Source: Bacteroidota bacterium (lineage in GTDB: Bacteria > Bacteroidota > Bacteroidia > Chitinophagales > Chitinophagaceae). Taken from it: 33,220 nt of DNA. Shown here one piece after another: positions 8,687-29,989 of the stretch (position 1 is the first letter of the stretch; each line of letters begins with the position of its first letter). Made by a program: the position numbers and the translations under genes. Under the pieces are notes generated by a model. That model saw only the letters and a program-made list of their open reading frames with translations, searched no databases and had not been told where the DNA came from. Where the stretch lies: positions 1-33,220 of the forward strand of contig JAFAAT010000108.1 of the NCBI GenBank assembly GCA_023426425.1, given 5' to 3'.

Positions 8687-8700
8687 CTGACAGAAGTCAG
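8687..8700. promoter_or_regulatory. TGAC-N4-GTCA palindrome (ctgacagaagtcag)
   Basis: Perfect palindrome about 40 nt upstream of the HMA gene ATG. Its 12-nt core tgacagaagtca is identical to the site at 12390-12401. Confidence 0.5.
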
Positions 8701-8714
8701 TTGAAAACAGCTGG

Positions 8715-9128
8715 CTAACCGTAATAAGTGAAGCAGGAGTGGAGTTTGTAAAGGGGTATGTCTTCCCAAAGTCCAGGCGGAGCGTTGGATCTGCTTTCCC
8801 TGCATAAGGGCAGACTGGTAAAGCGGATTTCCTGCTGATGGGCATAGTGGGGTAAAATGGCCAGATCAGTAAAGGAAAGCGGAGCTTTTATCTTTACCTG
8901 GTCTGTGTGCTGCTGGTCCTGTGAAATTTTGGAGACTACTACTTTATTCTCACAACAGCTATCACTCTGGTCTTCTTCATCGCTGCAATCACCACCCTCA
9001 CAACCAGCGCCTTTCAGGTAGACATTCCAAGATTCAAGGTTGTCGCCACAATAATGTGCGTGTACCATGACCCCTGATACTGCCAGCAGGTAAAGGATCA
9101 ACACAGGTATGACGAGCAGCTTCTTCAT
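8715..9128 (-). CDS. HYC_CC_PP-motif small secreted/membrane protein
   Basis: The ORF track start at 9143 is TTG; ATG at 9128 gives MKKLLVIPVLILYLLAVSGV. Contains the HAHYCGD, DSCCENK and APPGLW motifs, which I recall as the HYC_CC_PP family that sits upstream of HMA/TonB-receptor genes in Bacteroidota. Confidence 0.65.
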   Translation of the reverse strand: MKKLLVIPVLILYLLAVSGVMVHAHYCGDNLESWNVYLKGAGCEGGDCSDEEDQSDSCCENKVVVSKISQDQQHTDQVKIKAPLSFTDLAILPHYAHQQEIRFTSLPLCRESRSNAPPGLWEDIPLYKLHSCFTYYG

Positions 9129-9289
9129 GAGAATGTACGGCAAAAATACGAGTATTCGTCTTAACAGTTCGTTATATGATAACAGGAACCTTTTACATTA
9201 TTTTGTTCAAGGGACCCGTTGAGACGTAGCACGCTACGTCAGACGCTACCATGAACTCAATTGAACAAGCTAAAACATAGATTTGTACC

Positions 9290-9691
9290 ATGTTACAACT
9301 TTTTCCTCCCGGAGCCACCAGGGAATATCGTCATACAGTGACTGATGCTGATACCGCGGTATTCGAAAGCGGCCAGGTTCATGCGGTGTATTCCACATTT
9401 GCGCTGGCAAGGGATGCAGAATGGAGCGGACGTCTCTTTGTACTGGAAATGAAGGAGGATGGTGAAGAAGGTATTGGTACAGGCATCCACATCAGGCACC
9501 TTGCACCAGCACTGGTTGGGGAGGAGGTGGTCTTTATTGCCACACTCGCTTCCGTCGAAAAGAATGAGGTGATGACAGATTTTAAGGCTATGGTCGGAAG
9601 CCGAGTTGTCGCTACGGGTACGCAATGGCAAAAAATAGTCAGAAAGGACAAGCTCGACCGTCTGTTTGAAAGTCTTCGTGCAGGTTCCTGA
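9290..9691 (+). CDS. hotdog-fold thioesterase family protein (FlK-like)
   Basis: 133 aa. The pattern GATREYRHTVTDADTA...VYSTFALARDAEW...GTGIHIRHLAPALVGEEV...G resembles small acyl-CoA thioesterases of the fluoroacetyl-CoA-thioesterase-like hotdog group. Confidence 0.65.
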   Translation: MLQLFPPGATREYRHTVTDADTAVFESGQVHAVYSTFALARDAEWSGRLFVLEMKEDGEEGIGTGIHIRHLAPALVGEEVVFIATLASVEKNEVMTDFKAMVGSRVVATGTQWQKIVRKDKLDRLFESLRAGS

Positions 9692-9757
9692 ACGTGAGCG
9701 GATATGCTGCCATTCGTCCATCTCCCGGGTTGAGGTTTGTCCTTCAGCTTGCAGCTT

Positions 9758-11041
9758 TTATCGCTGCTTTCTGAATCTATCGTAAAACTCCCGCTCCAGA
9801 TTCTCGCGATGGTCAGGATGGGCAATGCTGATGAGCTTTTTAGCCCTTTGCTCCAGGTTTTGGCCATAAAGGTTTACCACACCATACTCGGTAACCACAT
9901 AGTGCACGTGCCCCCTGGTAGTCACTACACCCGCGCCTGGTTTCAATGAGGCCACAATCCTCGACATGCCCTTGCTGGTGACAGAGGGTAGGGCAATAAT
10001 TGGTTTGCCACCTTCCGAAAGTGAGGCTCCGCGCATAAAGTCCATCTGTCCTCCTATGCCTGAGTACTGGTAGGTGCCAATCGAGTCTGCACATACCTGA
10101 CCCGTTATGTCTACTTCCAATGCGCTGTTTATCGCCACTACCTTTGGATTCTGCCGGATGATGGATGTGTCATTCACAAATGCCACATCCATAAATGTGA
10201 CATTAGGATTGTCGTCAACAAAATCGTAAACCTTCCTCGTACCCACAGTAAACGTAGTTGCCAGCTTACCTCTCCTGATCTTTTTATGCTCATTGGTAAT
10301 AATTCCTTTTTCCACCAGTGGAACAACCCCATCGGAAAACATCTCTGTATGGACTCCCAGGCCTTTGTGGTTGTGCAGTGATTGCAACACGGCATCAGGA
10401 ATGGCACCTATACCCATTTGAAGGGTGGCGCCGTCTTCTATGAGTTCAGCTACAAACTTTCCGATCCTGGAGGCTGTAGCGTCAATCTTCGCTCCATAGT
10501 TCACTTCCGGCAAGGGAGATTCCTCCCATACCAACGCTGCAAACTTTGAGACATGAACCTGACCGTCACCATGGGTGCGGGGCATTAATGGATTTACCTG
10601 GGCGATCAGTCTTTTAGCGGTCCTTGCTGCACTTAACGCAGCGTCAATAGAGGTTCCCAACGTGCAATAGCCATGTTTGTCTGGTGGCGAGACCTGGAGC
10701 AGAGCTACGTCCAATGGTAAAATGCCCTGTGAAAACAGCCTCGGGATTTCACTCAGAAACACAGGTACATAGCCACCAGCTGCAGAATTTGCCCAGTCGC
10801 GTACATTGGCAGATACAAACAGCGAGTTCAGATAAAAGCTTTTCTGCACTTCAGGTGAGTTCCAGTCCATATCACCCAGTGTGCTGATGGCAACCAATTC
10901 TACGTCAGTGATAGTTCCTGCTCTTCTGAACAATGCTTCTACCAGTGGCTTGGGAGTGGCGGCGCTTCCATGAATAAACACCCGGTTGCCACTACTGACT
11001 AATTCAACTGCTTCATCTGCGGAAATGTACTTTGTCTCCAT
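9758..11041 (-). CDS. acetyl-CoA hydrolase/transferase family protein (4-hydroxybutyrate/succinyl-CoA:acetate CoA-transferase-like)
   Basis: 427 aa. The N-terminal and C-terminal halves carry motifs typical of the family (GSAATPKPL, LQMGIGAIPDAV, HTEMFSDG, GGQMDFMRGA). Confidence 0.9.
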   Translation of the reverse strand: METKYISADEAVELVSSGNRVFIHGSAATPKPLVEALFRRAGTITDVELVAISTLGDMDWNSPEVQKSFYLNSLFVSANVRDWANSAAGGYVPVFLSEIPRLFSQGILPLDVALLQVSPPDKHGYCTLGTSIDAALSAARTAKRLIAQVNPLMPRTHGDGQVHVSKFAALVWEESPLPEVNYGAKIDATASRIGKFVAELIEDGATLQMGIGAIPDAVLQSLHNHKGLGVHTEMFSDGVVPLVEKGIITNEHKKIRRGKLATTFTVGTRKVYDFVDDNPNVTFMDVAFVNDTSIIRQNPKVVAINSALEVDITGQVCADSIGTYQYSGIGGQMDFMRGASLSEGGKPIIALPSVTSKGMSRIVASLKPGAGVVTTRGHVHYVVTEYGVVNLYGQNLEQRAKKLISIAHPDHRENLEREFYDRFRKQR

Positions 11042-11048
11042 TGACTTA

Positions 11049-12290
11049 TTAATTTTTTGCTTTCGATTTCCTGAGGTCTCTTATAAACTCTTCCAGGTGT
11101 TCCAGCTCCACATGGTCCATAATGACAATTTTATACCAACCTGGTTTTCCGGTGTGGCTGTCGGGGACAAGTCCGTACTTCAAAGCTATGGATTCTTCAA
11201 TGTCAGTGGCTCGCAACGTAATGATGTTCATGTTCTCCCGGTTGTAATATCTCACTCCGAGCCTGTCGAGGCGCTCACAACACCATCTCGTACGATAGAT
11301 CAGCTTGTTGATCTTCTCCAGCCAGCCATAGGGTCCATAAGTGAATAATATCATCCACACAGCAATGGCATTCGCACCGGAGCGGCTACCACTCAGCGTA
11401 ATGTCCATTCCCTGAACATACTGTGCCTCTTTTGTAAAGACATATTGCATCAATCCTTTTCTTACCAGGAAAATGCCTGTGCCATAGGGCGCCTGGAGCA
11501 TTTTGTGTGCATCCAGTGCCACGGAAGATACATGCTGGTTAGCAAAGTCTGCCTTACTGGTCTTGTCTTCAGGTCTGATGATGAACCCTCCAAAGGCGCC
11601 ATCGACGTGAATTTTAAATGGCAAACCCAGCCTGATCATGACTTCGGCATACGCGTCCGGATCATCTACACTTCCAAACATGGTGGTGCCTTTGTTGACG
11701 ATGATGATAAAGTACCTGACACCAGATGCTACAGCGTCAGTGATTTTTTCTTCCAAGGCACCGGTGTCAATTGCTCTTGTAGTAAAGTCGACAGGGATCT
11801 TATAACACCTGAGGTTAAGCAGGTTGGCAGCTTTTTCAATTGAATAGTGTGTGTCACTACTGCCAATCAGGGCAATCTGTTCATGTGTAGCACCGTGTTC
11901 CTGTATATAGAAGTTGCGATAGATCCATGCGGCCTGGATGTTAGCTTCTGTTCCTCCAGACGCTACATAGCCATCGCAGGAATAAGGTGTTGCTTTCAGC
12001 AAGTCCACACTCAGCAGTTCTATCACGTGTTTTTCGAGCTCCTGCGTTCCTCTGAAAAACTGTTCAGAGTCTCCCAGAGTATGGCAGCCTATGTGGTTGG
12101 GGTTTTGGACATAGGTCCTTAAAAGCGGCGCATCTTTAAGAAAAGAAGCATGTTCATAGAAAACATTGGGGTCCAGTTTAGAGGCGGGTATGCCCAGGCT
12201 TATACGTGCTGTGTAATCTATATTGCCCTGCAAAGCCTGGGTTATTAGTTTGTCCTGCTCCTGAAGGGAGATTTTTTTCCAGTATTTCAT
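11049..12290 (-). CDS. group II PLP-dependent decarboxylase-like enzyme
   Basis: 413 aa. Motifs SGGTEANI, HVDGAFGGF and the PLP-lysine motif LDAHKMLQAPYGTG. Stop lies 7 nt from the downstream CoA-transferase start, so the two are in one operon. Confidence 0.85.
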   Translation of the reverse strand: MKYWKKISLQEQDKLITQALQGNIDYTARISLGIPASKLDPNVFYEHASFLKDAPLLRTYVQNPNHIGCHTLGDSEQFFRGTQELEKHVIELLSVDLLKATPYSCDGYVASGGTEANIQAAWIYRNFYIQEHGATHEQIALIGSSDTHYSIEKAANLLNLRCYKIPVDFTTRAIDTGALEEKITDAVASGVRYFIIIVNKGTTMFGSVDDPDAYAEVMIRLGLPFKIHVDGAFGGFIIRPEDKTSKADFANQHVSSVALDAHKMLQAPYGTGIFLVRKGLMQYVFTKEAQYVQGMDITLSGSRSGANAIAVWMILFTYGPYGWLEKINKLIYRTRWCCERLDRLGVRYYNRENMNIITLRATDIEESIALKYGLVPDSHTGKPGWYKIVIMDHVELEHLEEFIRDLRKSKAKN

Positions 12291-12388
12291 TGTATAAAAG
12301 TGATTGCAAAACTAATGTGCCCACCATATTGCACTAATGATAAACGTCAGTGCAATCGTCGTTTTTATGTTGATTCTTCCTTCAGGCA

Positions 12389-12402
12389 ATGACAGAAGTC
12401 AT
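12389..12402. promoter_or_regulatory. TGAC-N4-GTCA palindrome (atgacagaagtcat)
   Basis: Perfect palindrome in the divergent spacer. It lies 98 nt from the decarboxylase ATG and 115 nt from the fasciclin ATG. Confidence 0.5.
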
Positions 12403-12517: not shown

Positions 12518-13078
12518 ATGAAACAGCATGTTCTGGAAATGATCGCCTTTGCCACATTCACCATGTTTTCCGTTAGCTGTGCTGATAGCACACCAGACAG
12601 CACCCCCTCAGTATCTGAACCCACCACCGCCCTAACCGGACAATCCGGTGTGCAGGATGATGTATCACAGAAGAATGTTGTGCAGGTAGCAGTAGCCAGC
12701 AAAGATCATTCTACTCTGGTGAAGGCAGTTCAACAGGCTGAACTGGTTGATGCGCTGAGCAATGCGGGACCCTTTACTGTTTTTGCTCCGGTGAATGAAG
12801 CTTTTGATAAGCTACCCGGTGGTACAATGGAAGACCTTATGAAGCCTGAAAATAAGGACAAGCTGGCCGACATACTTCAGTATCACGTGTCGGTGGGTGT
12901 GTTTAGGGAAGAAATGCTACAGGATGGACAGAAGATTGGTCAGGTGAATGGCAGCAACATTACCGTCACGAAGAACGGTGCCGACCTGTTTATCAATAAT
13001 TCAGCAAAGGTTATTGCCTCTGTCGTCGCTTCAAATGGTATTGTGTACGTAATTGATGGAGTCCTGTTGCCTGAATAA
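12518..13078 (+). CDS. fasciclin (FAS1) domain protein, secreted
   Basis: 186 aa with a signal peptide. FAS1 signatures HSTLVKAV, GPFTVFAPVNEAF and NGIVYVIDGVLLP. Confidence 0.9.
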   Translation: MKQHVLEMIAFATFTMFSVSCADSTPDSTPSVSEPTTALTGQSGVQDDVSQKNVVQVAVASKDHSTLVKAVQQAELVDALSNAGPFTVFAPVNEAFDKLPGGTMEDLMKPENKDKLADILQYHVSVGVFREEMLQDGQKIGQVNGSNITVTKNGADLFINNSAKVIASVVASNGIVYVIDGVLLPE

Positions 13079-13096: not shown

Positions 13097-13130
13097 AAAC
13101 ACGAAAGCTCCCCGGGAGCTTTCGTGTTTT
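13097..13130. terminator. bidirectional terminator hairpin
   Basis: aaacacgaaagctccc/gggagctttcgtgttt: perfect 16-bp inverted repeat around a 2-nt centre, followed by tt and preceded by tttt, which reads aaaa on the minus strand, so the minus-strand U-run comes only from the aaa inside the stem arm. Sits between the convergent fasciclin and crp/fnr genes and overlaps the stop of the latter. Confidence 0.7.
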
Positions 13131-13857
13131 ACAGGAACGACTGAGGCTGATACAGATTAGCTGTCCGTTTAAGTTTGTTCTGATCAATAATTCTGATTTT
13201 CTTTCCTACGAACCCAATAATTTCCTCGCTCTTAAAGTCCGAAAGCAATCTAATAGTCGTCTCCGTGGCAGTACCTACCAGGTCTGCGATTTCTTCCCTT
13301 GTCAGTAACACATTGATTGTATCGCTGTTTTCTTCAAACCCGTACGTCTCTTTGAGAAACAATAAGCCACGTGCCAGTCTTTCACGTACCGGTCTTTGTG
13401 CAAGCTCTGTTAGATGGTTTTCAGCTTGTTTCAGATCATTAGTCAAAAGCTGAATGATGCCCATTGCCAGCTTCATATTGGAGCTGAGAACTTCAAAAAA
13501 TACATCCTTTGGTATGAAAACAAGGTTGCTGTCTTCTATAGCCACCGCACTAGCGTTATACTTTTCGTGACAAAATAGCGCACGATACCCGAGAAGGTCT
13601 CCAGCTTTGGCCATTCTAAGGATTTGCATCTTCCCGTCGTCCCCGCTGTGTTCGACTTTCACTTTGCCTTTATCAATCCCGTAAATGCCGAGAGGATAGC
13701 TTCCTTCATTGAACACTGGTTGTCCCTTCGGGAAGAACAGGCAGTCTTTTCTTTGATTAAATAGTTCCATCTGTTGGTCTGAAAGACAGGAGAATAAGGA
13801 TTGGTGGGTAAGGTCGCAATCTCCGAAGACCCGGTATGGCGCGTGTTTATGTTTCAT
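13129..13857 (-). CDS. Crp/Fnr family transcriptional regulator
   Basis: 242 aa. cNMP-binding-like beta-roll (FFPKGQPVFNEGSYPLGIYGIDKGKVKV...GDLLGYRALF). C-terminal HTH LTREEIADLVGTATETTIRLLSDFKSEEII. Only two N-terminal Cys (GDCDL, FSCL), so it does not carry the classical four-Cys FNR cluster signature. Confidence 0.9.
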   Translation of the reverse strand: MKHKHAPYRVFGDCDLTHQSLFSCLSDQQMELFNQRKDCLFFPKGQPVFNEGSYPLGIYGIDKGKVKVEHSGDDGKMQILRMAKAGDLLGYRALFCHEKYNASAVAIEDSNLVFIPKDVFFEVLSSNMKLAMGIIQLLTNDLKQAENHLTELAQRPVRERLARGLLFLKETYGFEENSDTINVLLTREEIADLVGTATETTIRLLSDFKSEEIIGFVGKKIRIIDQNKLKRTANLYQPQSFL

Positions 13858-13919
13858 AAACGCTGTTTCTTATAAACGCAAAATTACCTGCATCGTGGCT
13901 GCGCACTACGTTAACCCTC

Positions 13920-13933
13920 CTGACACTAGTCAG
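13920..13933. promoter_or_regulatory. TGAC-N4-GTCA palindrome (ctgacactagtcag)
   Basis: Perfect palindrome 62 nt upstream of the crp/fnr ATG. Its centre is 22 bp from the next box. Confidence 0.5.
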
Positions 13934-13941: not shown

Positions 13942-13955
13942 ATGACATCGGTCAT
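13942..13955. promoter_or_regulatory. TGAC-N4-GTCA palindrome (atgacatcggtcat)
   Basis: Perfect palindrome 47 nt upstream of the TTG start of the cytochrome c/HCO-like operon. Confidence 0.55.
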
Positions 13956-14002
13956 ATTTCAAAGCATGTTCCTGCTGTTTCTTTGGCTTCCAATGATCTC
14001 AT

Positions 14003-14392
14003 TTGAGAAGTGTACTTACCATATTGTCTGTTGTGTTCCTCTGCTATTCGCTGATTGTTTACAAATACAGTGATCCCAGGCAGGGTAGCCTTCGGCCTGG
14101 TGAACAAGTGCTCGCAGGCTGGGACACCTGGCAGCAGAAGAATTGTCAGAGTTGTCACCAGATATACGGCCTGGGTGGTTATGCCGGTCCGGATCTCACT
14201 AATACAGTCCGTCAGCGTTCGCCGGAGTATTTAAAGGCGATAATCAAATCCGGAACAGCAGCCATGCCGGACTTCAGGTTAAGCCCAAAACAGGTTGATG
14301 AACTTGTTGCTTTTCTTGATTGGGTTGATAAAACGGGTGCTTCAAAAGTGCCAGATTCTCTGGTACACTGGACAGGTAGCTATAGACAATGA
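14003..14392 (+). CDS. membrane-anchored mono-haem c-type cytochrome (NorC-position subunit)
   Basis: 129 aa. An in-frame stop at 13994 leaves TTG 14003 as the only start. N-terminal TM helix, single CQSCH haem site followed by GLGGYAGPDLT, and a candidate Met ligand in GTAAMPDF. Stop overlaps the next ATG (ATGA). Confidence 0.8.
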   Translation: MRSVLTILSVVFLCYSLIVYKYSDPRQGSLRPGEQVLAGWDTWQQKNCQSCHQIYGLGGYAGPDLTNTVRQRSPEYLKAIIKSGTAAMPDFRLSPKQVDELVAFLDWVDKTGASKVPDSLVHWTGSYRQ

Positions 14393-17539: not shown

Positions 17540-17557
17540 GGACAAAAATGTCCGTAA
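17536..17557 (+). promoter_or_regulatory. operator-like near-palindrome ttaAGGACAaaaaTGTCCGtaa containing RGACAA-N4-GTCCGT
   Basis: 22-bp element with 8 of 9 symmetric half-sites, 25 nt upstream of the hemerythrin ATG. Near-identical copy at 18547-18564. A Bacteroidota -7-like box taactttg follows at 17570-17577. Confidence 0.5.
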
Positions 17558-17582
17558 TGGTATTTTGTATAACTTTGTAGCA

Positions 17583-22881: not shown

Positions 22882-23194
22882 TTCAAGTTATAACCTGGAG
22901 CTACAGGTGCTGAATGCACTTTATGAAGTAAATGACCCGGAGCTGAACATCAATATCGTAGATCTTGGACTGGTATATGAGGTAAGAGTGGATGAGGTGG
23001 CCGGACAGATCATGATAGAAATGACCCTTTCGACCCGTTCCTGTCCGCTTGGAGGATTAATTACCAGTCATGTGAAGGTTGCTGCAGAGGGGGCGTTGCC
23101 GGGGTATACTGCAGAAGTGAACCTGGTTTGGAGTCCGAAATGGACTTCGGACCGAATCTCCGAAGCCGGGAGAGCAGCGCTTGGGTGGGAGTAG
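22862..23194 (+). CDS. DUF59/MIP18-family metal-sulfur cluster assembly factor (SufT/PaaD-like)
   Basis: 110 aa. Motifs VNDPELNINIVDLGLVYEV and MTLSTRSCPL with the conserved Cys. Start overlaps the upstream gene by 20 nt. Confidence 0.85.
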   Translation: MNLTISDSSYNLELQVLNALYEVNDPELNINIVDLGLVYEVRVDEVAGQIMIEMTLSTRSCPLGGLITSHVKVAAEGALPGYTAEVNLVWSPKWTSDRISEAGRAALGWE

Positions 23195-23568: not shown

Positions 23569-24336
23569 CTATAGATCCTTTTTCCGGAAAATTCTGACAG
23601 AAAGGATCAGCGGAATAAGGATCCAAAACAGCATGCAGCATACAGAGAATATACTTCCTGTGGCGGATCCCAGGAACTGCTTGAACAATGCACCGGAATA
23701 GCCCATCAATACAGCTACATCGAGTTGCAGGAGCATCAGAACTCTTGCAAGGTCGATGGGGTTGAAGGCGATGATGCCAATCACTGCCTGGTCGATGGGG
23801 TAGTCGCTGAAGGAATAGATGAAGGCGATGAGCAGGCCGTCGAAGAGCAAAGTGAAGAACAGGGCTGTAATGAGTGCAATGCCTATGCCTTTGGTTTTGT
23901 CTTTCGACCTGACGAAGATGAGCAGTGCAAGAGACGAGAAGATGAGCGTCAGAAGAATTCCGGTAAGAACCAGAATCAGAGACTCAGTGCCTGAAACAAG
24001 AAATAGTAGCGGAATTCCTACGCCTACTGCGTATGCTGCTGAAAGTGAAAATGCTACGCCGATAAATTCTGAGAGCAGCACCTTTTGTCTTTTGATGGGT
24101 TGTGACAGCAGTAGTTCTGTGAATTCCACTGAGTTGAAGAAGTAGATGGTGGAGAACAGGATGGTGATGATGGGTACGAAGAGCAGTGTGACGTTTAAAA
24201 GGCTGAGCAGACCTTTGGCAGGGTTTTCATCGATATTGAGCACGCCGAGAGAGAGAACAATCAGCAGAATGGTATAGACGAGGATTGTCCTGTTGCGGAA
24301 AAGGTCGAGAAGTACGTATTTAACTATGGTTTTCAT
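23569..24336 (-). CDS. nosY: NosY, ABC-2 type permease of the Nos maturation transporter
   Basis: 255 aa with 6 TM helices. ATGA overlap with the nosF stop. Last gene of the nos operon. Confidence 0.85.
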   Translation of the reverse strand: MKTIVKYVLLDLFRNRTILVYTILLIVLSLGVLNIDENPAKGLLSLLNVTLLFVPIITILFSTIYFFNSVEFTELLLSQPIKRQKVLLSEFIGVAFSLSAAYAVGVGIPLLFLVSGTESLILVLTGILLTLIFSSLALLIFVRSKDKTKGIGIALITALFFTLLFDGLLIAFIYSFSDYPIDQAVIGIIAFNPIDLARVLMLLQLDVAVLMGYSGALFKQFLGSATGSIFSVCCMLFWILIPLILSVRIFRKKDL

Positions 24337-25064
24337 TGCTGGCTAAGTCTTGATTCGGGCAGTTGAGTTTGTATGACCTGTGCGATAACCCTGTTCAGGC
24401 GTTCTTCACCGGTAGTGCGTTTAAGTTCGTCAACTGATTTATAGAACATGAGGTTTCCGTCCTGCAGGTAGATGATATCGCTGGCGATACCTTCCAGGTC
24501 GCTGAGGACGTGAGAGGTAATCAGGATCAGTTTGCCTGCTGCGCGCTCTTTGATCATTTTATCTTTCAGGAGCTCACTGGAGACAGGGTCGAGGCCTGCG
24601 GTTGGTTCATCGAGGATGTATATTTCCGGAGAAAAGAGGAAGGCCAGGGATGCGCTTACTTTCTGTCTTGTGCCACCGGAAAGGCTTCGCATGGTTTTGT
24701 GTTTCATTTTGTTGAGGCCAAACCCATGGATCAGCTCTTCGTCATAGGAAGTATGTAAGGGTCTCAGCTCTTTGATCAGGTTGATTACCTGCTCAATGGA
24801 CATGTTATCAGGATAGCGGCCAATCTGGGGCATGTAGCCGATTTTAGACCGGTAGCCCCAATCTGATTTGACTACGTGGCCATTGATGGTAATGGTGCCT
24901 TTTTGTGGAATGACGAGACCAAGGATTGACTTGATCAGAGTTGTTTTGCCGGAGCCATTGGGGCCAAGCAGTGAAATCGCCTGCCCCTGTGACATTTCGA
25001 GGTTGATATTGTCAAGGGCGGTGAACTTGCCGAACTTTTTTGTTAGTTGCTCAATTTTGATCAT
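24333..25064 (-). CDS. nosF: NosF, ABC transporter ATP-binding protein
   Basis: Walker A GPNGSGKTT, signature LSGGTRQK, Walker B ILDEPTAGLD. Start set to ATG 25064, which forms an ATGA overlap with the nosD stop. The ORF track start at 25073 is GTG. Confidence 0.9.
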   Translation of the reverse strand: MIKIEQLTKKFGKFTALDNINLEMSQGQAISLLGPNGSGKTTLIKSILGLVIPQKGTITINGHVVKSDWGYRSKIGYMPQIGRYPDNMSIEQVINLIKELRPLHTSYDEELIHGFGLNKMKHKTMRSLSGGTRQKVSASLAFLFSPEIYILDEPTAGLDPVSSELLKDKMIKERAAGKLILITSHVLSDLEGIASDIIYLQDGNLMFYKSVDELKRTTGEERLNRVIAQVIQTQLPESRLSQQ

Positions 25065-26293
25065 AGTTTCCACATTTTCATCTTCGGCTTCTCATCCTTT
25101 AGCTCATCGGGTATGACGCTTGGCATTACTTTCTCAACCTGGTCCATGATGTTGGTAAGAAAGCTGCGGTAGAGAATCATTGCAGTGGGAATGCGCTCGG
25201 AAATTACAGAATATATGCTGACGGGGTAGTAGGGGATGTCGCCTGTGCCATCACGGTTAAGGTCATATCCGTCGTATTTATCCCAATAGTTATTGGTGAA
25301 AGTGTTGAGCATCATGGTTCCGTTTGTGGCTACGTCGAATGAGTTTCCCAGGAAGTTGTTTTTCTCAAAAGTGTTATCTGAGCAACTGGCCTGAATTCTC
25401 ATTGCCCAGCCGTTTTCACTGAATGTGTTCCAGGCGACATGAATCCTGTTGGTGCCTTCCATGAAGATAGCCACAGTGTTCTTTTGAAAGGTGTTGTACT
25501 CAATTCTGCTGTCCGAAATTTCCTTAAGCAATATGGCGTATGATGCATCTCCCCAGTTGTTGAAGAAATTATTGCGGTACATGGTGATGCCTTTCGTGTA
25601 CATTACGGAAACGCCGGCGCCGTTATTTCTGAAAGTGTTGTAGCTATAGGTGTCATTGTGAGAGAACATAAAGTGCAGACCGTACCGGATGTTGTCGAAT
25701 GAGTTGTTTCTGTGTACCAGAGACTCTGTCACGAACTCAAAATAGATTCCGTCGCGATGTTTAGAGACTGAGTTATTCCTGATGAGGAGGCTGTTGCATT
25801 TCCAGGCGTGTATGCCATTGCCTGCTTTTAGTTCCGTTACTGCGTCTGAAGTGATCGTATTTCCTTCTATGGTACAATGGGTGCTGTTTTGCAGGTAGAC
25901 GCCGTACGTGGTTTCGAATATCCTGCAATCTTTAACGGTTACGTAGGAGACGTTCTGAATTTTGATGCCAGCCATGTCTACCATGCCACTGTGTCCGGTC
26001 CTTCTGATTTCCAGTCCGCTGATCAGAACATTTCGTGCTGTGACAAAGAAGATCTCGTGTTTTTTCTGCCCGTCAAACACGGGATATTCTTCGCCCAGGA
26101 TGGTGATACTTTTGTTGATGTTGATGTCGTACTGGTTGTAAATTCCCTTAGTGATTTTAATTGTGTCGCCATTGCTGGTTTTGTTGATCAGGTTTTGAAG
26201 ATTGTCTTTAGGGGTGGCGATCAGTGTGGCAGCCGAGGCATGCGTACATGCCTGCGTCAGTAGCAGGGAAAGAAGAGTGAAGAGTCTATACAT
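25061..26293 (-). CDS. nosD: NosD, periplasmic parallel beta-helix copper-maturation protein
   Basis: Start trimmed to ATG 26293 (MYRLFTLLSLLLTQAC signal), 1 nt after the nosL stop. Repeated beta-helix units (IxxNxI/F..N motifs such as IEGNTITS, IRNNSVSK, HRNNSFDN, YRNNFFNN, EYNTFQKN). Confidence 0.9.
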   Translation of the reverse strand: MYRLFTLLSLLLTQACTHASAATLIATPKDNLQNLINKTSNGDTIKITKGIYNQYDININKSITILGEEYPVFDGQKKHEIFFVTARNVLISGLEIRRTGHSGMVDMAGIKIQNVSYVTVKDCRIFETTYGVYLQNSTHCTIEGNTITSDAVTELKAGNGIHAWKCNSLLIRNNSVSKHRDGIYFEFVTESLVHRNNSFDNIRYGLHFMFSHNDTYSYNTFRNNGAGVSVMYTKGITMYRNNFFNNWGDASYAILLKEISDSRIEYNTFQKNTVAIFMEGTNRIHVAWNTFSENGWAMRIQASCSDNTFEKNNFLGNSFDVATNGTMMLNTFTNNYWDKYDGYDLNRDGTGDIPYYPVSIYSVISERIPTAMILYRSFLTNIMDQVEKVMPSVIPDELKDEKPKMKMWKL

Positions 26294-26294
26294 G

Positions 26295-26714
26295 TTATTG
26301 AATATTTTCCCAGCTGGTAAAGCTGATTCCCAGGCTGTCTGCAATAGGAGCTCCATCTTCTTCGGAGGAAAAGGCGGCATAGTTGCCGTTCATTGGACTG
26401 CGGAAGAAGTCGTGCTTGAGGAATTTGGCGGTCTTTGCGTCAAGCATGCCATCTGTTTTGTTATGGTAGTCTTCTACAAAGAGCAGGTCATTTGGTGATG
26501 GTTCGAGTGTTGATATAAACTGCCTGAGGCAGGTGATATCATCAAACTTGTAGACTTTGCCTTTGGCGTCTACCATTTCAGCGCCATATCTTTCGTCCAT
26601 GATCGTCATCCGGCAATGTGCGCAGGCGTCCTTACCATAGTTGACCGGTTCAAATTTTCTGGAGCAGGAGACTAGCAAAAGGCATGCGGTAGCAACGATA
26701 AATAGATTTTTCAT
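26295..26714 (-). CDS. nosL: NosL, copper-chaperone lipoprotein
   Basis: 139 aa. Lipoprotein signal LLVSCS, motif CAHCRMTI, and a size and position typical of NosL. Confidence 0.85.
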   Translation of the reverse strand: MKNLFIVATACLLLVSCSRKFEPVNYGKDACAHCRMTIMDERYGAEMVDAKGKVYKFDDITCLRQFISTLEPSPNDLLFVEDYHNKTDGMLDAKTAKFLKHDFFRSPMNGNYAAFSSEEDGAPIADSLGISFTSWENIQ

Positions 26715-26738
26715 TCGAGCTGGTTTTAGATGAGCAGG

Positions 26739-27338
26739 TCAGGTTGCAATAGTACGAGACTTTGCGATTCTTCCTCTTCGCCATTCGTAGAAGCTGATGC
26801 CGACCAGGATAATACCGGCGATGATGAAGAACCAACCGCCGATGTCTGGCTGGGAAAGTGCTTCAAAATTCAGCATTTTTTTATAGCCGATGAGTGGAGG
26901 CTGGTATGCCATGCCGGGTACTTTGATTGGTGCAGTGGGATCGAGGTTGTGACCGTATTCATATTCCCACCTCCAGAAGTCGTACATAGAGGCGCCGGCA
27001 ATGATCAGGAACAAGGCGGTCCAGATATAGTAGCCAATTTTCCGGTTCCAAAGAAATACACCTAATCCAAGCACGCAGAAGGAAATGAAAGCGATGGGCA
27101 GATAAATGAATTCTTTGAAGTCAGATTCTTTGATGGTGGCCATGCCGATGTAGTGGTTAAGGCCGTTGATGATTTCCACGTCGCCGGAGAGGTGGTCAAT
27201 CCAGATGTTCATATAGATGCCTTCGGGATACTGAGGTGCGGCAAGGTCTATTCGCCACATTGGGAAGAACCATAGCATTGCGATACAGGCGATCACAAAG
27301 AACACGCTCAGCCGACCCGGCATACTTAGTTTAGTCAT
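26739..27338 (-). CDS. NosB-like integral membrane protein
   Basis: About 199 aa from ATG 27338; the ORF track start at 27365 is GTG and ATG 27323 is an alternative. About 5 TM helices. Sits immediately downstream of nosZ, as described for clade II nos clusters. Confidence 0.7.
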   Translation of the reverse strand: MTKLSMPGRLSVFFVIACIAMLWFFPMWRIDLAAPQYPEGIYMNIWIDHLSGDVEIINGLNHYIGMATIKESDFKEFIYLPIAFISFCVLGLGVFLWNRKIGYYIWTALFLIIAGASMYDFWRWEYEYGHNLDPTAPIKVPGMAYQPPLIGYKKMLNFEALSQPDIGGWFFIIAGIILVGISFYEWRRGRIAKSRTIAT

Positions 27339-27399
27339 GGGAGTAAAATAATAATGGCAGTACACCTAAAGGAATAGTGTACTGCCATTGGGTTAAATA

Positions 27400-29382
27400 T
27401 TAGCGCTGTGCGACTGCTGCTGCTCCTTTAGTGGTATCAACACCCCATCTGAGAGGTACGTTACTGCCTTGAGGAGAGACCCTCATGTAGCCTTGCATTT
27501 CCTGATGAAGTGCAGAGCAGAAGTCTGTACAGTAGTATGGGTAGATACCAGCTTTTTTGGGTACGAACTTGAGGGTGACAGTTTCACCGGGCATGATCAG
27601 CAATTCAGCATTGTCGGCATGTTTGATGGCAAATCCGTGCGGGATGTCCCAATCCTGTTCGAGGTTGGTAACGTGGAAGAAAACAGAGTCTCCCACTTTG
27701 ATGCCTTCTATGATATCGGGTGTCAGGTGAGAGCGGATAGCTGTCATGTAAACGTGAACTCTATTGCCCTGGCGTTCTACCTTGGTTTCTTTTTCACCCA
27801 TTGCTACGTAAGGGTGTTTGTTTTTTGCGATATCGTAGATCTTGACACTCTTATCTTTAATCTTGTCCGCAAGAATCGCTTGTGCATAGTGCGGTTCTCC
27901 GAGGGTGGGGAAGTCAAGTAGAAGCTGCATTTTATCACCGTCGATAGCGTAAAGCTGGGCGCTTTGTGCAAGTTCCGGACCAGTGGGGAGGTAGCGGTCT
28001 TTGGTGATTTTGTTGTAGGCCATTACGTATTTGCCATAGGGAGCTTTGGTATCACCTCCCGGTACCATCAGGTGGCCGATGGAATAGTAGGTAGGCACCC
28101 TGTCAAGTACTTCGAGAGTTTTGATATTCCATTTTACGATTTCTGATGATACGAACATGGAAGTGTAGGCGTTCCCTTTGCCATCGAATTCTGTATGCAG
28201 AGGTCCGAGACCGGGTTTCTTAACCTCGCCATGTAATGCAGCTTCGTATTTGATTACCGGGATGCCGTGGTATTCACCTTCGAAAGCTTTGCTGGCAATT
28301 GCCTGAGTGAACTTCTGATAGGAGAATACTGGTATCAGGGCCGCCAGTTTACCGCTGCCTACGATGTATTCACCGGAAGGATCCACGTCGCATCCATGCG
28401 GGGACTTGGGGCAGGGGATGAGGTAGACGAAGTCTTTAAGCTCATTAGGGTCGAGTGTGAGTACTTCCCTGAGCACTTCGCTTGTTGCGGTGTGGGTTTC
28501 TTCATGCAGTGTATTGCGATAGTACTCGGTAGCCATCTTTTTTCCTCTGCCGGCTTTGATGTATTCTTCTGCTTTCTTCCAGTTGATAGCGACGATGAAG
28601 TCTTTATCTTTTTGAGAAGCGTTTACCTCCAGAAGATGGCTAGCCTGTTCTGTGTTGTAGGTTGAGAAGAAGAACCAGCCATGTGAAGGGCCCTTACCAG
28701 CACGGCTAAGGTCAAGATCCATTCCGGGGAGGATTACCTGGAAGGCGATGTCCATGTTGCCGTTGGTTTGATCTACGCTGATGAAAGAAACGGTGCTTTT
28801 GAAGTTTACTTTGAAAGAAGAGTCATTAATGGGAGCTTCTTTGTTGTCAATAGGGACAGCAAAGCGTGTACCAGCGATGACGTATTCTGTGTTTTCAGTC
28901 AGAAAAGGTGAGGAGTGGTTACCGGCGCTGTTTGGCAGCTCAAGGATTTGTGCAGTTCTGAAAGTGTTCAGGTCAATCCTCGCAACGCGTGGTGTATTGT
29001 TTGCATTGGCGAAGAGCCACCGGCCATCATGCTCGCCGTTGGTCTGAGACAAGGCGAGGTGGTGCTGATCGTCCCAGGGAATAAAGCCATGGGTGGATTG
29101 CAACATGGGCTTTGTCTCTTCATTGTAGCCCCAGCCGTTCTCAGGGTGTTGAGAGAAGACGGGTATTACTTTAAGTAATCTACCGGAAGGAATTCCGTAA
29201 ACCGAGACCTGGCCGTTGAAGCCCCCTGAGACAAAATTGTAAAATTCGTCGTACTTGCCGGGAGCGACATAAACTCTATCCGCGGCGTCGCCGCTTACCG
29301 CAGCTTCAGTCGTTTTCATCTTACAGCTCTGAATGGTACCTGCCATGACCAAAGCTGCAAGCAATAATGGAAACTTTTTCAT
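27400..29382 (-). CDS. nosZ: nitrous-oxide reductase NosZ, Sec-dependent (clade II type)
   Basis: 660 aa. N-terminus MKKFPLLLAALVMAGTIQSC has no twin-arginine motif. Beta-propeller region includes DGRWLFANANNTPRVARIDL. C-terminal cupredoxin carries CuA ligands in IPHGF...CTDFCSALHQEM. Confidence 0.95.
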   Translation of the reverse strand: MKKFPLLLAALVMAGTIQSCKMKTTEAAVSGDAADRVYVAPGKYDEFYNFVSGGFNGQVSVYGIPSGRLLKVIPVFSQHPENGWGYNEETKPMLQSTHGFIPWDDQHHLALSQTNGEHDGRWLFANANNTPRVARIDLNTFRTAQILELPNSAGNHSSPFLTENTEYVIAGTRFAVPIDNKEAPINDSSFKVNFKSTVSFISVDQTNGNMDIAFQVILPGMDLDLSRAGKGPSHGWFFFSTYNTEQASHLLEVNASQKDKDFIVAINWKKAEEYIKAGRGKKMATEYYRNTLHEETHTATSEVLREVLTLDPNELKDFVYLIPCPKSPHGCDVDPSGEYIVGSGKLAALIPVFSYQKFTQAIASKAFEGEYHGIPVIKYEAALHGEVKKPGLGPLHTEFDGKGNAYTSMFVSSEIVKWNIKTLEVLDRVPTYYSIGHLMVPGGDTKAPYGKYVMAYNKITKDRYLPTGPELAQSAQLYAIDGDKMQLLLDFPTLGEPHYAQAILADKIKDKSVKIYDIAKNKHPYVAMGEKETKVERQGNRVHVYMTAIRSHLTPDIIEGIKVGDSVFFHVTNLEQDWDIPHGFAIKHADNAELLIMPGETVTLKFVPKKAGIYPYYCTDFCSALHQEMQGYMRVSPQGSNVPLRWGVDTTKGAAAVAQR

Positions 29383-29406
29383 AGAAAATTGTGTGTGTGT
29401 GATTTA

Positions 29407-29901
29407 TTAGTTTTTACCGTCGTTAAATCTCATGAATTCGAGTACTGCTCTTGCTTCATCGTCGGATAGGTTTTGATTTGGCATACGTACCATACATACC
29501 TCCAGCATAGCCTGAGCTTCAGGATCTTTATCCAGCATTTCGTCTACATTAGTTACAAAGTTCATGATCCACTCTGGTGTTCTTCTGTCTGTTACACCTT
29601 TCCAGCCGGGACCGACGATGCGCTCTTCAGAGAGTTTGTGACAGGAGAGACATTTTACTTCCGATATCTGTTTTCCTTTAGCTACCATTTCCTGGTCTAA
29701 AGGATGGGTGAGCTCTACATTCTGGAATTTGCCGATGCCTTTCGGGTTAGCTTCCTGTTCCACAGGAACGCCGCTCACATCTCCAGGTTCTTTGAGAATT
29801 TCTGAGTTGCCTGCAGACTGCTCGTTTTCGTTTGAGCCTCCACAACTTCCGAAAGTGAATGCTGCCGTTAGTGTAATGAGTACGATTCCTTTAATGTTCA
29901 T
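29407..29901 (-). CDS. c-type cytochrome lipoprotein preceding nosZ (NosC-like electron donor)
   Basis: 164 aa. Signal plus FGSC lipobox, single CLSCH haem site, Met candidate in MVRMPNQ. Stop lies 24 nt upstream of the nosZ start. Confidence 0.85.
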   Translation of the reverse strand: MNIKGIVLITLTAAFTFGSCGGSNENEQSAGNSEILKEPGDVSGVPVEQEANPKGIGKFQNVELTHPLDQEMVAKGKQISEVKCLSCHKLSEERIVGPGWKGVTDRRTPEWIMNFVTNVDEMLDKDPEAQAMLEVCMVRMPNQNLSDDEARAVLEFMRFNDGKN

Positions 29902-29975
29902 AACAGGTGTTTTAATGAGTGAATAACTGTTTTGGTTTTATGATGTAAAATTCGTTTCTGGTATTCTGAGAAAAC

Positions 29976-29989
29976 ATGACTTGAGTCAT
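29976..29989. promoter_or_regulatory. TGAC-N4-GTCA palindrome (atgacttgagtcat)
   Basis: Perfect palindrome 74 nt upstream of the first gene of the nos operon. Confidence 0.55.

Follow-up and report, generated by a model that had tools for sequence, protein, structure and literature searches.

Predicted Crp/Fnr-type operators upstream of nitrous oxide and nitric oxide genes in a Bacteroidota contig

The 33,220-nt stretch of DNA analysed here (the window) contains five perfect TGAC-N4-GTCA palindromes. At least four of them (12390, 13921, 13943 and 29977), together with the imperfect sites at 12338, 30030 and 32272, are read here as predicted operators of dimeric Crp/Fnr-family regulators, a reading to which I give a probability of roughly 0.7. 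The regulon would comprise, within the contig, the crp gene, the cytochrome c/NorB-like/MbnPH/hemerythrin/Rrf2/RIC operon, the nosCZ-LDFY genes, the PLP-decarboxylase/CoA-transferase operon, the fasciclin gene and the 585-aa gene. Crp/Fnr boxes at N2O and NO genes are a familiar type of switch; a published description of such a switch in Bacteroidota was not found.

Results

Five exact palindromes in non-coding DNA

A previous reading of the window, made from the sequence only, had claimed five perfect TGAC-N4-GTCA palindromes. The pattern TGACNNNNGTCA has exactly five exact matches, which correspond to the 14-mers of that reading minus one base on each side:

8688-8699, unstranded: exact match TGACagaaGTCA, in the spacer that separates the HYC_CC_PP/DUF8199 and HMA genes
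12390-12401, unstranded: exact match TGACagaaGTCA, 52 bp from the relaxed box at 12338
13921-13932, unstranded: exact match TGACactaGTCA, crp-proximal member of a 22-bp tandem pair
13943-13954, unstranded: exact match TGACatcgGTCA, member proximal to the cytochrome c/NOR-like operon
29977-29988, unstranded: exact match TGACttgaGTCA, upstream of nosC-nosZ, centre 81 nt from the nosC ATG

Dinucleotide-preserving shuffles gave a mean of 0.50 matches, in agreement with the 0.5 or so per 33.2 kb put forward earlier, and a maximum of 3, so that five matches were reached in none of 100 shuffles. According to the gene map, 3,114 bp of the window are non-coding (9.4%, previously given as about a tenth), and this DNA holds all five exact sites, against 0.04 predicted there from base composition; were the sites placed at random, the probability of finding five out of five in non-coding DNA would be 7e-6. 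Relaxed matches at 5103, 18011 and 23772 lie in coding DNA, which is about the chance number. The description of the five locations as promoter-bearing spacers holds in that all are non-coding; it does not extend to 8649-8714, which is not clearly promoter-bearing because it lies between the co-directional HYC_CC_PP/DUF8199 and HMA genes.

A relaxed motif conserved upstream of target genes

The working consensus, (A/C)TGA(C/T)-N4-(A/G)TCA(T/G), is looser than TGAC-N4-GTCA. It has the geometry of an FNR box (5-4-5, with a TGA-N6-TCA core) without the outer T, the outer base being A in 28, C in 12, G in 2 and T in 2 of 44 half-sites, which bears out the proposal of an FNR/DNR-type 5-4-5 geometry with a different half-site. 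The proposed half-site, TGAC, needs amending: it is exact in the five sites of the window, but across homologues the half-site is TGAY, not strictly TGAC. Around homologues, the exact palindrome has 20 matches in 1.37 Mb, which is the chance level, indicating that the perfect inner C/G is a trait of this genome and not of the family.

The relaxed motif is densest in target spacers: its frequency per kb is 0.12-0.16 in coding DNA, 0.7-0.95 in other spacers and 3.0-5.8 in the spacers 5' of homologues of the predicted targets, the corresponding values at nos loci being 0.16, 0.72 and 5.8. It is kept in orthologous promoters, 5' of nosC, the cytochrome c operon, the decarboxylase gene, the 585-aa gene and the fasciclin gene. 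First genes of operons have a box upstream, and internal nos genes almost never do (nosZ 2/80, nosD 0/56, nosF 0/48). The earlier reading had named similar density in coding regions or random spacers, and absence from orthologous promoters, as findings that would speak against it; neither was observed in the loci compared.

Fixed geometry of boxes and promoters

In the surroundings of Crp homologues, 36 adjacent box pairs are spaced by exactly 22 bp, versus 5 in total for the remaining spacings of up to 120 bp, the chance expectation being about 0.05 per spacing. In 33 of these 36 tandem pairs, a -7 box with at most one mismatch is found at +29 from the centre of the proximal box. Among 90 boxes of nos promoters, 38 have a -7 box at +29 or +30, with +29 as the main peak and no other offset giving a comparable one. 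The promoter-proximal box would therefore precede the Bacteroidota -7 element TAnnTTTG by 29 nt, counted from the centre of the box to the T of the element, and hence be centred at about -43, the start site being placed by the assumed position of the -7 element. A dimer bound there, beside the would-be -33 element, would be expected to activate rather than repress, in a class-II-like manner, at promoters whose own elements are weak.

The divergent spacer between crp and the cytochrome c operon

The tandem pair of the window lies between the following features:

13129-13857, minus strand: Crp/Fnr-family regulator of 242 aa, recognition helix TETTIRLL (Pfam cNMP_binding and HTH_Crp_2)
13879-13886, minus strand: candidate -7 element for crp, TAATTTTG, exact match to the consensus TAnnTTTG
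13978-13985, plus strand: candidate -7 element for the cytochrome c/HCO-like operon, TTTCTTTG, one mismatch to TAnnTTTG
14003-23194, plus strand: predicted target operon (Pfam)

The operon encodes, in its first part, a cytochrome c, an HCO/NorB-like protein (nearest solved relative NorB 4xyd, at an E value of only 0.0017), MbnP, an MbnH-like protein, hemerythrin and Rrf2 and, in the rest, a 417-aa membrane protein, RIC/ScdA, DUF1858/DUF2249, a 445-aa membrane protein and FeS_assembly_P. None of its intergenic gaps, each of at most 63 nt, contains a box. The gene order is kept in L001, L081, L083 and L085, orthologous loci in which the box starts are 22 bp apart as they are in the window, and the motif is present upstream of the operon in 4/4 orthologous loci, which supports its earlier designation as a target. 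The regulator gene, likewise designated, is supported by an alignment of the crp-upstream spacers of five loci, whose regulators are 62-75% identical: the two boxes and the -7 box are the only invariant blocks. The invariant columns are TGAC and TCA in the 13921 box and TA..TTTG in the -7 candidate.

The crp -7 box lies at +40 from the centre of the 13921 box in the window, L081, L083 and L001, and at +41 in L085. On the plus strand, TTTCTTTG lies at +29 from the centre of the 13943 box, and L081 has the same box at the same offset. The window and its orthologues have in common the offsets +29/+51 and +40/+62, apart from the +41 on the crp side of L085. One pair, its members two helical turns apart, would thus serve both divergent promoters, from about -43 and -65 for the NOR-like operon and from about -54 and -76 for crp, where the -7 box matches the consensus perfectly. 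Such a placement at the crp promoter would imply autoregulation or control by a paralogue.

The nos operon

23569-29901, minus strand: nos operon, comprising cytochrome c (nosC), Sec-type clade II nosZ, membrane protein, nosL, nosD, nosF and nosY (Pfam)
30030-30041, unstranded: relaxed second box TGATctttATCA, 134 nt upstream of the nosC ATG

Against the NCBIfam model for Sec-dependent NosZ, TIGR04246 (cut-off 625), the NosZ protein reaches 937 bits. A box is found at most 250 nt upstream of nosC in 51 of 59 orthologous nos loci, and at most 220 nt upstream in 64 of 72, the other 8 having none inside 220 nt; the choice of the nos operon as a target is thereby supported. The -7-like element at +29 from the 29977 box, GAATTTTA, is weak, with two mismatches. 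The distance of the 30030 box fits the second mode of other nos loci, which is at about 134-136 nt, and CAACTTTG lies at +28 from this box.

Decarboxylase, fasciclin and 585-aa genes

9758-12290, minus strand: PLP-dependent decarboxylase and acetyl-CoA hydrolase/transferase, predicted target (Pfam, NCBIfam)
12338-12349, unstranded: relaxed box TGATaaacGTCA, promoter-proximal for the PLP decarboxylase/CoA-transferase operon
12518-13078, plus strand: fasciclin-domain gene, probable target (Pfam)
30451-32208, minus strand: gene of the 585-aa protein, probable regulon member (orthologue context, boxes)
32272-32283, unstranded: relaxed box TGACgacgATCA, upstream of the 585-aa gene

The 12338 box has, at +29 from its centre, an exact -7 box, TAGTTTTG (12307-12314, minus strand). 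Orthologues of the PLP decarboxylase have a box upstream in 4/4 cases and adjoin Crp homologues in L003, L004, L009 and L010. Stand-alone fasciclin orthologues have boxes upstream in 6/6 loci, and in many loci fasciclin homologues adjoin crp or sit within nos clusters. The 12390 box may belong to the decarboxylase promoter as its upstream box, to the fasciclin gene, or to both; in the direction of the fasciclin gene, the window has no good -7 box at +29. The suggestion that one or both of these transcription units are targets is retained on the strength of the motif, with the correction that the decarboxylase-proximal box is the imperfect one at 12338 and not the perfect one at 12390.

The 585-aa protein is without a match in Pfam, NCBIfam and PDB. 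The weaker copy that had been noticed near 32271-32284 is the 32272 box. A box is present upstream of 3/4 orthologues of this gene, with a -7-like box at +29 in L046 and L142, and the orthologues adjoin crp (L046) or nos clusters (L104, L142, L159).

The site upstream of the HMA gene

The HMA/TonB operon, which had also been listed as a target, finds no support in conservation: the motif is found in 0/3 orthologous spacers (L167, L168 and L169, picked irrespective of nos content). The status of the 8688 site is uncertain, a lineage-specific box and an intercistronic hairpin being the two candidates. For this site alone, the chances are about even that 8688-8699 forms the stem of an RNA hairpin between the two cistrons, CUGAC-UUCU-GUCAG, and matches the pattern by coincidence. 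Besides lacking the box, all three orthologous spacers have hairpins of unrelated sequence right after the upstream stop codon (-8.4 to -14.5 kcal/mol), with a T-rich run after that of L167; the flanking genes point the same way and are kept together as a unit; and 45 nt separate the centre of the site from the HMA ATG, the sole -7-like box being at +16, not +29. Two points weigh on the other side: a hairpin would have TGAC/GTCA as its 4-bp stem core around a 4-nt loop by chance in only about 1 case in 256, and a copper-uptake module (HMA protein plus TonB-dependent receptor) would go well with NosZ, a copper enzyme.

The resident regulator and its paralogues

The resident regulator reaches the cut-off of no named NCBIfam family; its highest score is for Fnr, 77.5 bits versus 228. 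Direct BLASTP alignment verified the recognition helices quoted earlier, TETTIRLL for the window and VETISRLL for E. coli K-12 FNR: the residues matching the Glu and Arg of FNR are kept, and an Ile occupies the residue aligned with Ser212. The helix GTATET[AT]IRLL is invariant in 21 homologues, and nos-adjacent regulators of other Bacteroidota have RVETVIR. The best match among solved structures is the Crp/Fnr-family protein of PDB 2gau (E = 4e-37, residues 19-233), but its helix is TVSNAIRTL versus TATETTIRLL, so that 2gau should read another box.

In 71 of 99 homologues, Cys is invariant or nearly so at window positions 11, 14, 23, 39 and 113. Val113 of the resident protein aligns with FNR Cys122, and its clade is without the Cys residues at positions 11 and 23 that nearly all FNR-like paralogues have. 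Syntenic orthologues of the resident regulator are all encoded beside cytochrome c/COX1-like/hemerythrin/Rrf2/RIC genes. Cys-bearing Chitinophaga paralogues have the box pair before genes for hemerythrin-like proteins or CcoI/FixI-type ATPases, and Taibaiella soli has two paralogues on one contig (P0057, P0082). Since the FNR-type Cys set is mostly missing and the orthologues always lie beside NO-detoxification/NOR-like genes, the resident regulator is probably a DNR/NnrR-like, N-oxide-responsive partner of an FNR-like O2-sensing paralogue that reads the same box. Because the paralogues have the same recognition helix, the boxes are not assignable to the resident protein alone. Of the claim that they form the regulon of this protein, the box family, the geometry and the helix stand; the exclusive assignment does not follow from them, helix and box being common to the paralogues.

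Discussion

Which protein occupies the boxes bears on the role of the resident gene. One possibility, which I consider rather unlikely, is that the boxes are bound mainly by a Cys-bearing, FNR-like O2-sensing paralogue encoded elsewhere, the resident protein being one of its targets or a binder of a subset, a situation likened to that of ANR versus DNR in Pseudomonas. The Cys-bearing paralogues have the identical recognition helix and their genes, too, adjoin box pairs with the 22-bp spacing and the +29 offset, the box-bearing decarboxylase orthologues adjoin Crp homologues of 54-57% identity, which is the range of these paralogues, and the Taibaiella soli contig encodes two paralogues together. 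However, an FNR-like paralogue is hypothetical for this genome, of which the contig covers 33 kb only, and the resident gene always adjoins a box pair and the NOR-like operon (five loci), as is typical of a dedicated local regulator. This possibility is compatible with the main reading; the two are not mutually exclusive.

That the sites are instead operators of the Rrf2-family (NsrR-like) regulator encoded at 18059-18511 is very improbable. The Rrf2 gene is conserved within the target operon, and in the nos loci L118, L129, L144, L160 and L161 an Rrf2 gene, instead of crp, is found beside the boxes. Yet a 12-bp TGA-N6-TCA palindrome fits Crp/Fnr geometry and the Glu and Arg that contact bases are retained in the resident helix (PMC1274295), some 25 loci with box pairs beside Crp homologues have no Rrf2 match by tblastn, and the Rrf2 protein is best matched by generic, SUF and IscR models, NsrR reaching only 28.9 bits. 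Least credible of all is a functionless compositional or repeat-element artefact: the sample is small and the three relaxed matches in coding DNA are about the chance number, but the shuffles, the intergenic position of all five sites and nucleotide-level conservation and geometry across dozens of genomes argue against it. Predicted binding by Crp/Fnr-family dimers is the reading I retain.

The FNR/ANR and DNR (FnrP/NNR, FixK2/NnrR) boxes of proteobacterial denitrifiers have the form TTGAT-N4-ATCAA. Common to those systems and the predicted one are a Crp/Fnr-family dimer, a 5-4-5 palindrome with a TGA-N6-TCA core, a box some four helical turns upstream of the start site (class II), nos and nor targets, and paralogues with a common box, namely an O2 sensor with the Cys set and a partner without it. 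The present boxes differ in their outer base, A or C and not T, and in their inner base, C or T; the promoters are of the Bacteroidota -33/-7 type, and the tandem 22-bp pair is common and conserved. In addition, the protein is far under the curated cut-offs for Fnr, FixK and FnrL, and nosZ is of the Sec-dependent clade II. Among proposed regulators of clade II nos genes are NssA, NssB and NssC of Wolinella succinogenes, which are Crp/Fnr-family proteins. A Crp/Fnr candidate of Nitrosophilus labii has been proposed to control a clade II nos cluster (PMC11539149). All of these belong to another phylum, Campylobacterota, and are likened here by family and target only.

For the half-site, the closest system is HcpR1, a Crp/Fnr protein that is associated with NO stress, has no FNR Cys motif and is often encoded divergently from its target (PMC1274295). 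It belongs to another phylum and acts at another promoter type; its targets are hcp, frdX and norB (PMC1274295), and the window is without an hcp gene. Its boxes retain the outer TT, unlike those described here, and tandem Crp/Fnr-type boxes are not reported in the HcpR1 paper (PMC1274295). The HcpR1 boxes of delta-proteobacteria and cyanobacteria, TTGACnnnnGTCAA or wyTTGACnnnnGTCAArw (Rodionov et al. 2005, PMC1274295), nevertheless have the identical TGAC-N4-GTCA core, and provide a precedent for the half-site found in this window.

Palindromic boxes in the spacers of the window

The exact palindrome TGACNNNNGTCA occurs five times in the window, starting at 8688, 12390, 13921, 13943 and 29977. 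Dinucleotide-preserving shuffles (n = 100) gave a mean of 0.50 such sites and a maximum of 3, and none of the 100 reached five. A gene map built from ORFs and from Pfam and NCBIfam scans leaves a non-coding remainder of 3,114 bp (9.4% of the window). All five exact sites fall inside this remainder, where base composition predicts 0.04. The sequence-only reading had proposed these sites as the regulon of the resident Crp/Fnr protein; its five coordinates, its statistics, its estimate of the spacer fraction and a weaker copy at 32272 were all correct on recount. The genes and operons concerned are the following.

Candidate target genes and operons (coordinates, strand, content)
6040-9143, minus: HYC_CC_PP(DUF8199)-HMA-TonB receptor unit
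9758-12290, minus: PLP decarboxylase/CoA-transferase operon
12518-13078, plus: fasciclin gene
13129-13857, minus: Crp/Fnr regulator (crp), divergent from the long operon
14003-23194, plus: long operon; cytochrome c, divergent haem-copper oxidase (HCO), MbnP, MbnH-like dihaem peroxidase, hemerythrin, Rrf2 regulator, 417-aa membrane protein, RIC/ScdA, DUF1858/DUF2249, 445-aa membrane protein and Fe-S assembly protein
23569-29901, minus: Sec-dependent clade II nos cluster; cytochrome c 'nosC', nosZ, membrane protein, nosL, nosD, nosF, nosY
30451-32208, minus: 585-aa protein, no family match

The nos cluster belongs to clade II, with NosZ scoring 937.5 bits against TIGR04246 (cut-off 625) and NosD, NosL and the ABC components recognized by Pfam. 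The HCO-like protein (14389-15777) is very divergent (79 bits to COX1 of Pfam; 34 bits to ccoN of NCBIfam, cut-off 583), and its only PDB match is NorB (4xyd, E = 0.0017). MbnP/MbnH pairs are usually linked to copper acquisition; the MbnP/MbnH-like pair at 15777-17539 lies inside the NOR-like operon in the window and in the comparison locus L081, and is absent from loci L083, L085 and L001. Pfam and NCBIfam gave no match for the 417-aa (18575-19828) and 445-aa (21544-22881) membrane proteins or for the soluble 585-aa protein (30451-32208), the PDB gave none for the 417-aa and 585-aa proteins, and across the three databases no match puts a name to any of them. Many Bacteroidota loci have a homologue of the 417-aa protein beside a nos-adjacent Crp/Fnr gene, often preceded by a box, and the 585-aa gene recurs beside crp or nos clusters.

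The half-site had been read as TGAC. In 80 fetched genomic loci around regulator homologues (1.37 Mb in total) the exact palindrome matched 20 times, which is the chance level. Strict TGAC therefore does not hold as the motif of the family, and the relaxed form TGAY-N4-RTCA was adopted. Counterparts of these spacers in the syntenic Taibaiella locus (L001) contain the pairs TGACaaaaATCA/TGATggatGTCA and TGACaaccATCA/TGACgaacATCA; within each pair the starts are 22 bp apart, the very spacing of 13921 and 13943 in the window. The relaxed form matches the window 11 times versus 2.3 expected, a number reached by none of 100 shuffles. Eight of these matches lie in spacers, namely the five exact sites and those at 12338, 30030 and 32272. 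The three in coding DNA (5103-5114 in the OmpA gene, 18011-18022 in the hemerythrin gene and 23772-23783 in nosY) are about the chance number and are not regarded as functional. A one-mismatch copy, TGTCgttaGTCA (32298-32309), also precedes the 585-aa gene; it begins 26 bp from the start of 32272, versus the canonical 22 bp.

A frequency matrix built from 22 sites of the window and the four closest orthologous loci has the consensus (A/C)TGA(C/T)-N4. Among the 44 half-sites, the outer position is mostly A (28) or C (12), with G and T twice each, and the inner position is either C (28) or T (16). The boxes hence share with the FNR/DNR box TTGAT-N4-ATCAA the 5-4-5 geometry and the TGA-N6-TCA core, but its outer T is found in only 2 of the 44 half-sites.

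Conservation of the boxes in orthologous promoters

The neighbourhood of crp is kept in loci L081 (regulator 74-75% identical), L083 (63-64%), L085 (65-67%) and L001 (61-62%), and in each of them a 22-bp pair of boxes lies 72-101 nt upstream of the crp ATG. When the 150 nt upstream of crp from these four loci and the window were aligned with MAFFT, invariant blocks were confined to TGAC and TCA in each of the two boxes and to TA..TTTG in a -7 promoter element. A metagenome scan with NosZ yielded a second set of 80 nos loci (69-81% identity). In 51 of the 59 nos loci whose sequence extends 250 nt or more upstream of nosC, that upstream stretch contains at least one box; box density in it is 4.8 per kb versus 0.20 per kb in the rest of the loci. 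The extended consensus in this set is tATGAYnnnnRTCATa, and the preferred distances to the nosC ATG are about 65 and 135 nt; the two nos boxes of the window lie at 81 and 134 nt. Over all loci, boxes are found within 220 nt upstream of operon-first genes, not of internal genes.

Loci with a box upstream of the gene
nosC: 64/72
cytochrome c: 4/4
PLP decarboxylase: 4/4
585-aa gene: 3/4
stand-alone fasciclin: 6/6
nosZ (internal): 2/80
nosD (internal): 0/56
nosF (internal): 0/48
HCO-like gene (internal): 0/4

As a control, with ORFs crudely masked, density in the nos loci drops from 5.8 per kb in target spacers to 0.72 in the remaining spacers and 0.16 in coding DNA. The motif is therefore neither similarly dense in coding DNA or random spacers nor absent from orthologous promoters such as those of nosC and cytochrome c, the two computational grounds on which the sequence-only reading was to be given up. 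The fasciclin-domain gene, which in the window stands alone beside crp, is often found inside Bacteroidota nos clusters, after nosZ or nosC (L015, L108, L118, L129, L131-L134, L136, L141, L143, L144, L147, L154, L160-L162), and may, from these positions, be a nos accessory gene.

Site 8688 behaves differently. Three orthologous HYC_CC_PP-HMA-TonB units were fetched, and none of them has a box between the first two genes; the proposal that the HMA/TonB operon is a target is thus left unsupported. Each orthologous spacer instead holds a hairpin right after the upstream stop codon, of differing sequence, the window hairpin being CUGAC-UUCU-GUCAG plus outer pairs. The hairpin-folding spacers between HYC_CC_PP/DUF8199 and HMA, unrelated in sequence, are 8649-8714 in the window, 3941-4000 in L167, 3918-4000 in L168 and 3995-4086 in L169. 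The recurring hairpin is possibly a conserved RNA structure, or an attenuator, between the two cistrons. The only -7-like element near 8688 is at +16 rather than +29. The odds are roughly even between a lineage-specific addition, possibly repressive and plausibly tied to the copper demand of NosZ, and a coincidental match within a structural hairpin.

A fixed distance between box and promoter

Promoters of Bacteroidota, as known from Bacteroides fragilis and Flavobacterium, carry a -7 element TAnnTTTG and a -33 element TTTG. Class II activators occupy a site whose centre is about 41.5 bp ahead of the transcription start, adjoining the upstream promoter element. A -7 box was scored at up to one mismatch to TAnnTTTG, and its offset was taken from the box centre to the T. 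In nos promoters, 38 of 90 boxes have a -7 box at +29 or +30, and no other offset shows a comparable peak. For tandem pairs around Crp homologues, the -7 box lies at +29 from the proximal centre in 33 of 36. If the T lies near -14, as in Bacteroides and Flavobacterium promoters, the box would be centred near -43, a class-II-like position beside the -33 region.

In the window, TTTCTTTG stands at +29 from site 13943 on the side of the cytochrome c operon. The decarboxylase side of 12338 has an exact TAGTTTTG, again at +29, and the crp side of 13921 an exact TAATTTTG at +40. Offsets of +29/+51 for the divergent operon, with a weak -7 box, and of +40/+62 for crp, with a perfect one, both recur in L081, L083, L085 and L001, which indicates that a single pair serves both divergent promoters, each with its own geometry. 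A -7-like box at +29 is also seen in orthologues of the 585-aa gene, and the window has GAACTTAG at the same offset. At the nos cluster, the perfect box 29977 has only a two-mismatch -7 element, at +29, and the upstream box 30030 has CAACTTTG at +28.

The 22-bp pair

Among adjacent boxes in the 83 non-redundant Crp loci, 36 pairs have a spacing of exactly 22 bp, versus 5 for all other spacings up to 120 bp together; chance predicts about 0.05 per spacing. The nos loci add 12 pairs spaced 21-23 bp. In some 21 loci of the Chitinophaga type the pair directly follows the 3' end of the regulator gene, and after it come a consensus -7 box and then by a gene for a hemerythrin-like protein or a CcoI/FixI-type copper ATPase, an arrangement that suggests an O2-responsive regulon for cbb3-oxidase maturation. 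It lies about +717 to +1183 from the regulator start, with the -7 box at +29; the hemerythrin-like gene encodes about 184 aa and the ATPase is of the P type. The arrangement directly follows a Cys-bearing (FNR-like) paralogue in L019, L026, L030, L037, L043, L047, L053, L054, L062, L063, L066-L068, L071, L072, L074 and L076-L079.

A spacing of two helical turns places both dimers on the same face of the DNA. One tentative reading, to which I would give a probability of about 0.3, is that two dimers bind the pair cooperatively and that it forms an obligate unit, the dimers being arranged either as a dimer of dimers or as an O2-sensing and an N-oxide-sensing paralogue side by side on one face. 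It would then work as a bidirectional switch, setting the regulator's own level from about -54/-76 and activating the NO-reductase-like operon from about -43/-65, and with the single boxes would make up a Bacteroidota-wide regulon for clade II N2O reduction. No account of such a tandem arrangement for Crp/Fnr proteins was found in the literature searched, and the strict 22-bp pair is the least expected element of the system.

Other origins of the boxes were considered and rejected. In FLP-type boxes (CCTGA-N4-TCAGG) the TGA-to-TCA distance is 4 nt, versus 6 here. Against a repeat or mobile element, conservation is confined to the boxes and the -7 element, the spacers having otherwise diverged. 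Finally, the Rrf2 protein of the long operon might be taken, as an Rrf2/NsrR regulator, for the box-binding protein; the motif geometry, and pairs beside Crp homologues in loci without an Rrf2 match by tblastn, argue against it.

The resident regulator

The regulator is a member of the Crp/Fnr superfamily, with a cNMP-binding-type beta-roll at the N terminus and a Crp-type helix-turn-helix at the C terminus (PF00027, 7.5e-20; PF13545, 2.1e-15; PF00325, 2e-5). It has 69 Crp/Fnr-type matches in the PDB, and its best solved relative, 2gau, is a Crp/Fnr-family entry of unstated function. The closest homologues are from Taibaiella, Flavipsychrobacter and Chitinophagaceae, from which the contig seems to belong to a member of Chitinophagales (Bacteroidota).

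FNR proper ligates its [4Fe-4S] cluster with a set of cysteines, Cys20, 23, 29 and 122 in E. coli. This set was not found in the window protein, in which Val113 is opposite FNR Cys122 and, among the N-terminal cysteines, only Cys14 aligns with a Cys (Cys23) by BLASTP. In 71 of 99 full-length homologues, window positions 11, 14, 23, 39 and 113 are occupied by a Cys with few or no exceptions; the 28 closest to the window protein are without Cys at positions 11 and 23. None of the curated NCBIfam cut-offs is reached, the best score being 77.5 bits to NF008365 (Fnr, cut-off 228), with CRP, FixK, FnrL and NtcA also below theirs. Cysteine set and family score together set the protein apart from FNR proper; on these sequence grounds it is not an FNR-type Fe-S sensor.

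The sequence-only reading had set the recognition helix TETTIRLL against VETISRLL of FNR, and alignment with E. coli K-12 FNR bears this out. The segment GTATET[AT]IRLL is invariant in 21 homologues and aligns with FNR GLTVETISRLL, the residues opposite the Glu and Arg of FNR being kept. The equivalent positions of CRP (180, 181 and 185) have been described as interacting with the DNA target site (Rodionov et al., PMC1274295). Aligned with FNR Ser212 is an Ile, in the window regulator and likewise in unrelated (25-35% identical) nos-adjacent Bacteroidota regulators that read RVETVIR. Ser212 is the reader of the outer T of the FNR box. If this role holds, the Ser-to-Ile change would fit the loss of the outer T.

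DNR/NnrR-type regulators have no FNR Cys motif, are activated in a haem- or NO-dependent manner and control nir, nor and nos genes. The window protein, without the Cys set and associated with nos and NOR-like genes, would fit this type, the match to DNR (3dkw) being only E = 7e-11. ANR/DNR, FnrP/NNR and FixK2/NnrR are established regulator pairs; analogy with them, together with the NO-detoxification and NOR-like genes that constantly accompany the regulator, points to a probable N-oxide-responsive role.

Members of the regulator family (P0005, P0010, P0014, P0033, P0051 and others) bear the JGI label 'polysaccharide utilization system transcription regulator', a name at odds with their boxes and with the nor/nos/cbb3 genes conserved around them. 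In many Bacteroidota the gene divergent from nosC belongs to a second, distant Crp/Fnr clade of about 200 aa (25-30% identical), at about 2600-3250 in most of its loci (L094, L097, L099, L101, L104, L107, L109, L115, L133, L137, L139, L141, L145, L146, L153, L163, L164, L166); its helix reads RVETVIR, and most members have a CxxC just before the helix-turn-helix.

Relation to known systems

Bacteroidota with clade II nosZ count among the important environmental sinks of the greenhouse gas N2O. The full-text literature searched yielded no prior description of the motif or regulon in Bacteroidota, and nothing on how nosZ-bearing Bacteroidota switch nos on. The nearest account found is a microbiome study in which carbon sensing is the role given to Crp/Fnr homologues of Flavobacteriales and Saprospiraceae (PMC8510549). 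With the box defined, the promoter geometry fixed and a conserved target list, the regulation of N2O reduction in Bacteroidota can be tested directly. The list covers nos, the NorB-like oxidase operon, the copper-handling MbnP/H genes and several proteins of unknown function, and the box offers a means of predicting N2O-reduction regulons in metagenome-assembled genomes.

A precedent for the TGAC half-site is the HcpR1 consensus wyTTGACnnnnGTCAArw (Rodionov et al. 2005, PMC1274295). The HcpR1 regulon is recognized by the box TTGACnnnnGTCAA upstream of hcp or frdX (PMC1274295). Its core matches the window boxes, but these lack the outer TT and the window has no hcp gene; since both outer bases and targets differ, this is not an HcpR1 regulon.

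The type of mechanism, an FNR/DNR-type box, is familiar and expected, and a Bacteroidota regulon of this kind is useful rather than startling. As predicted from sequence, the system shares with FNR/DNR-type regulons a Crp/Fnr dimer, the TGA-N6-TCA box, a presumed class-II-like position, nos and nor targets and paralogues with a common box. It differs from them in the outer base, the Bacteroidota promoter context, the clade II nos target, several conserved targets without known function and the strict 22-bp pair.
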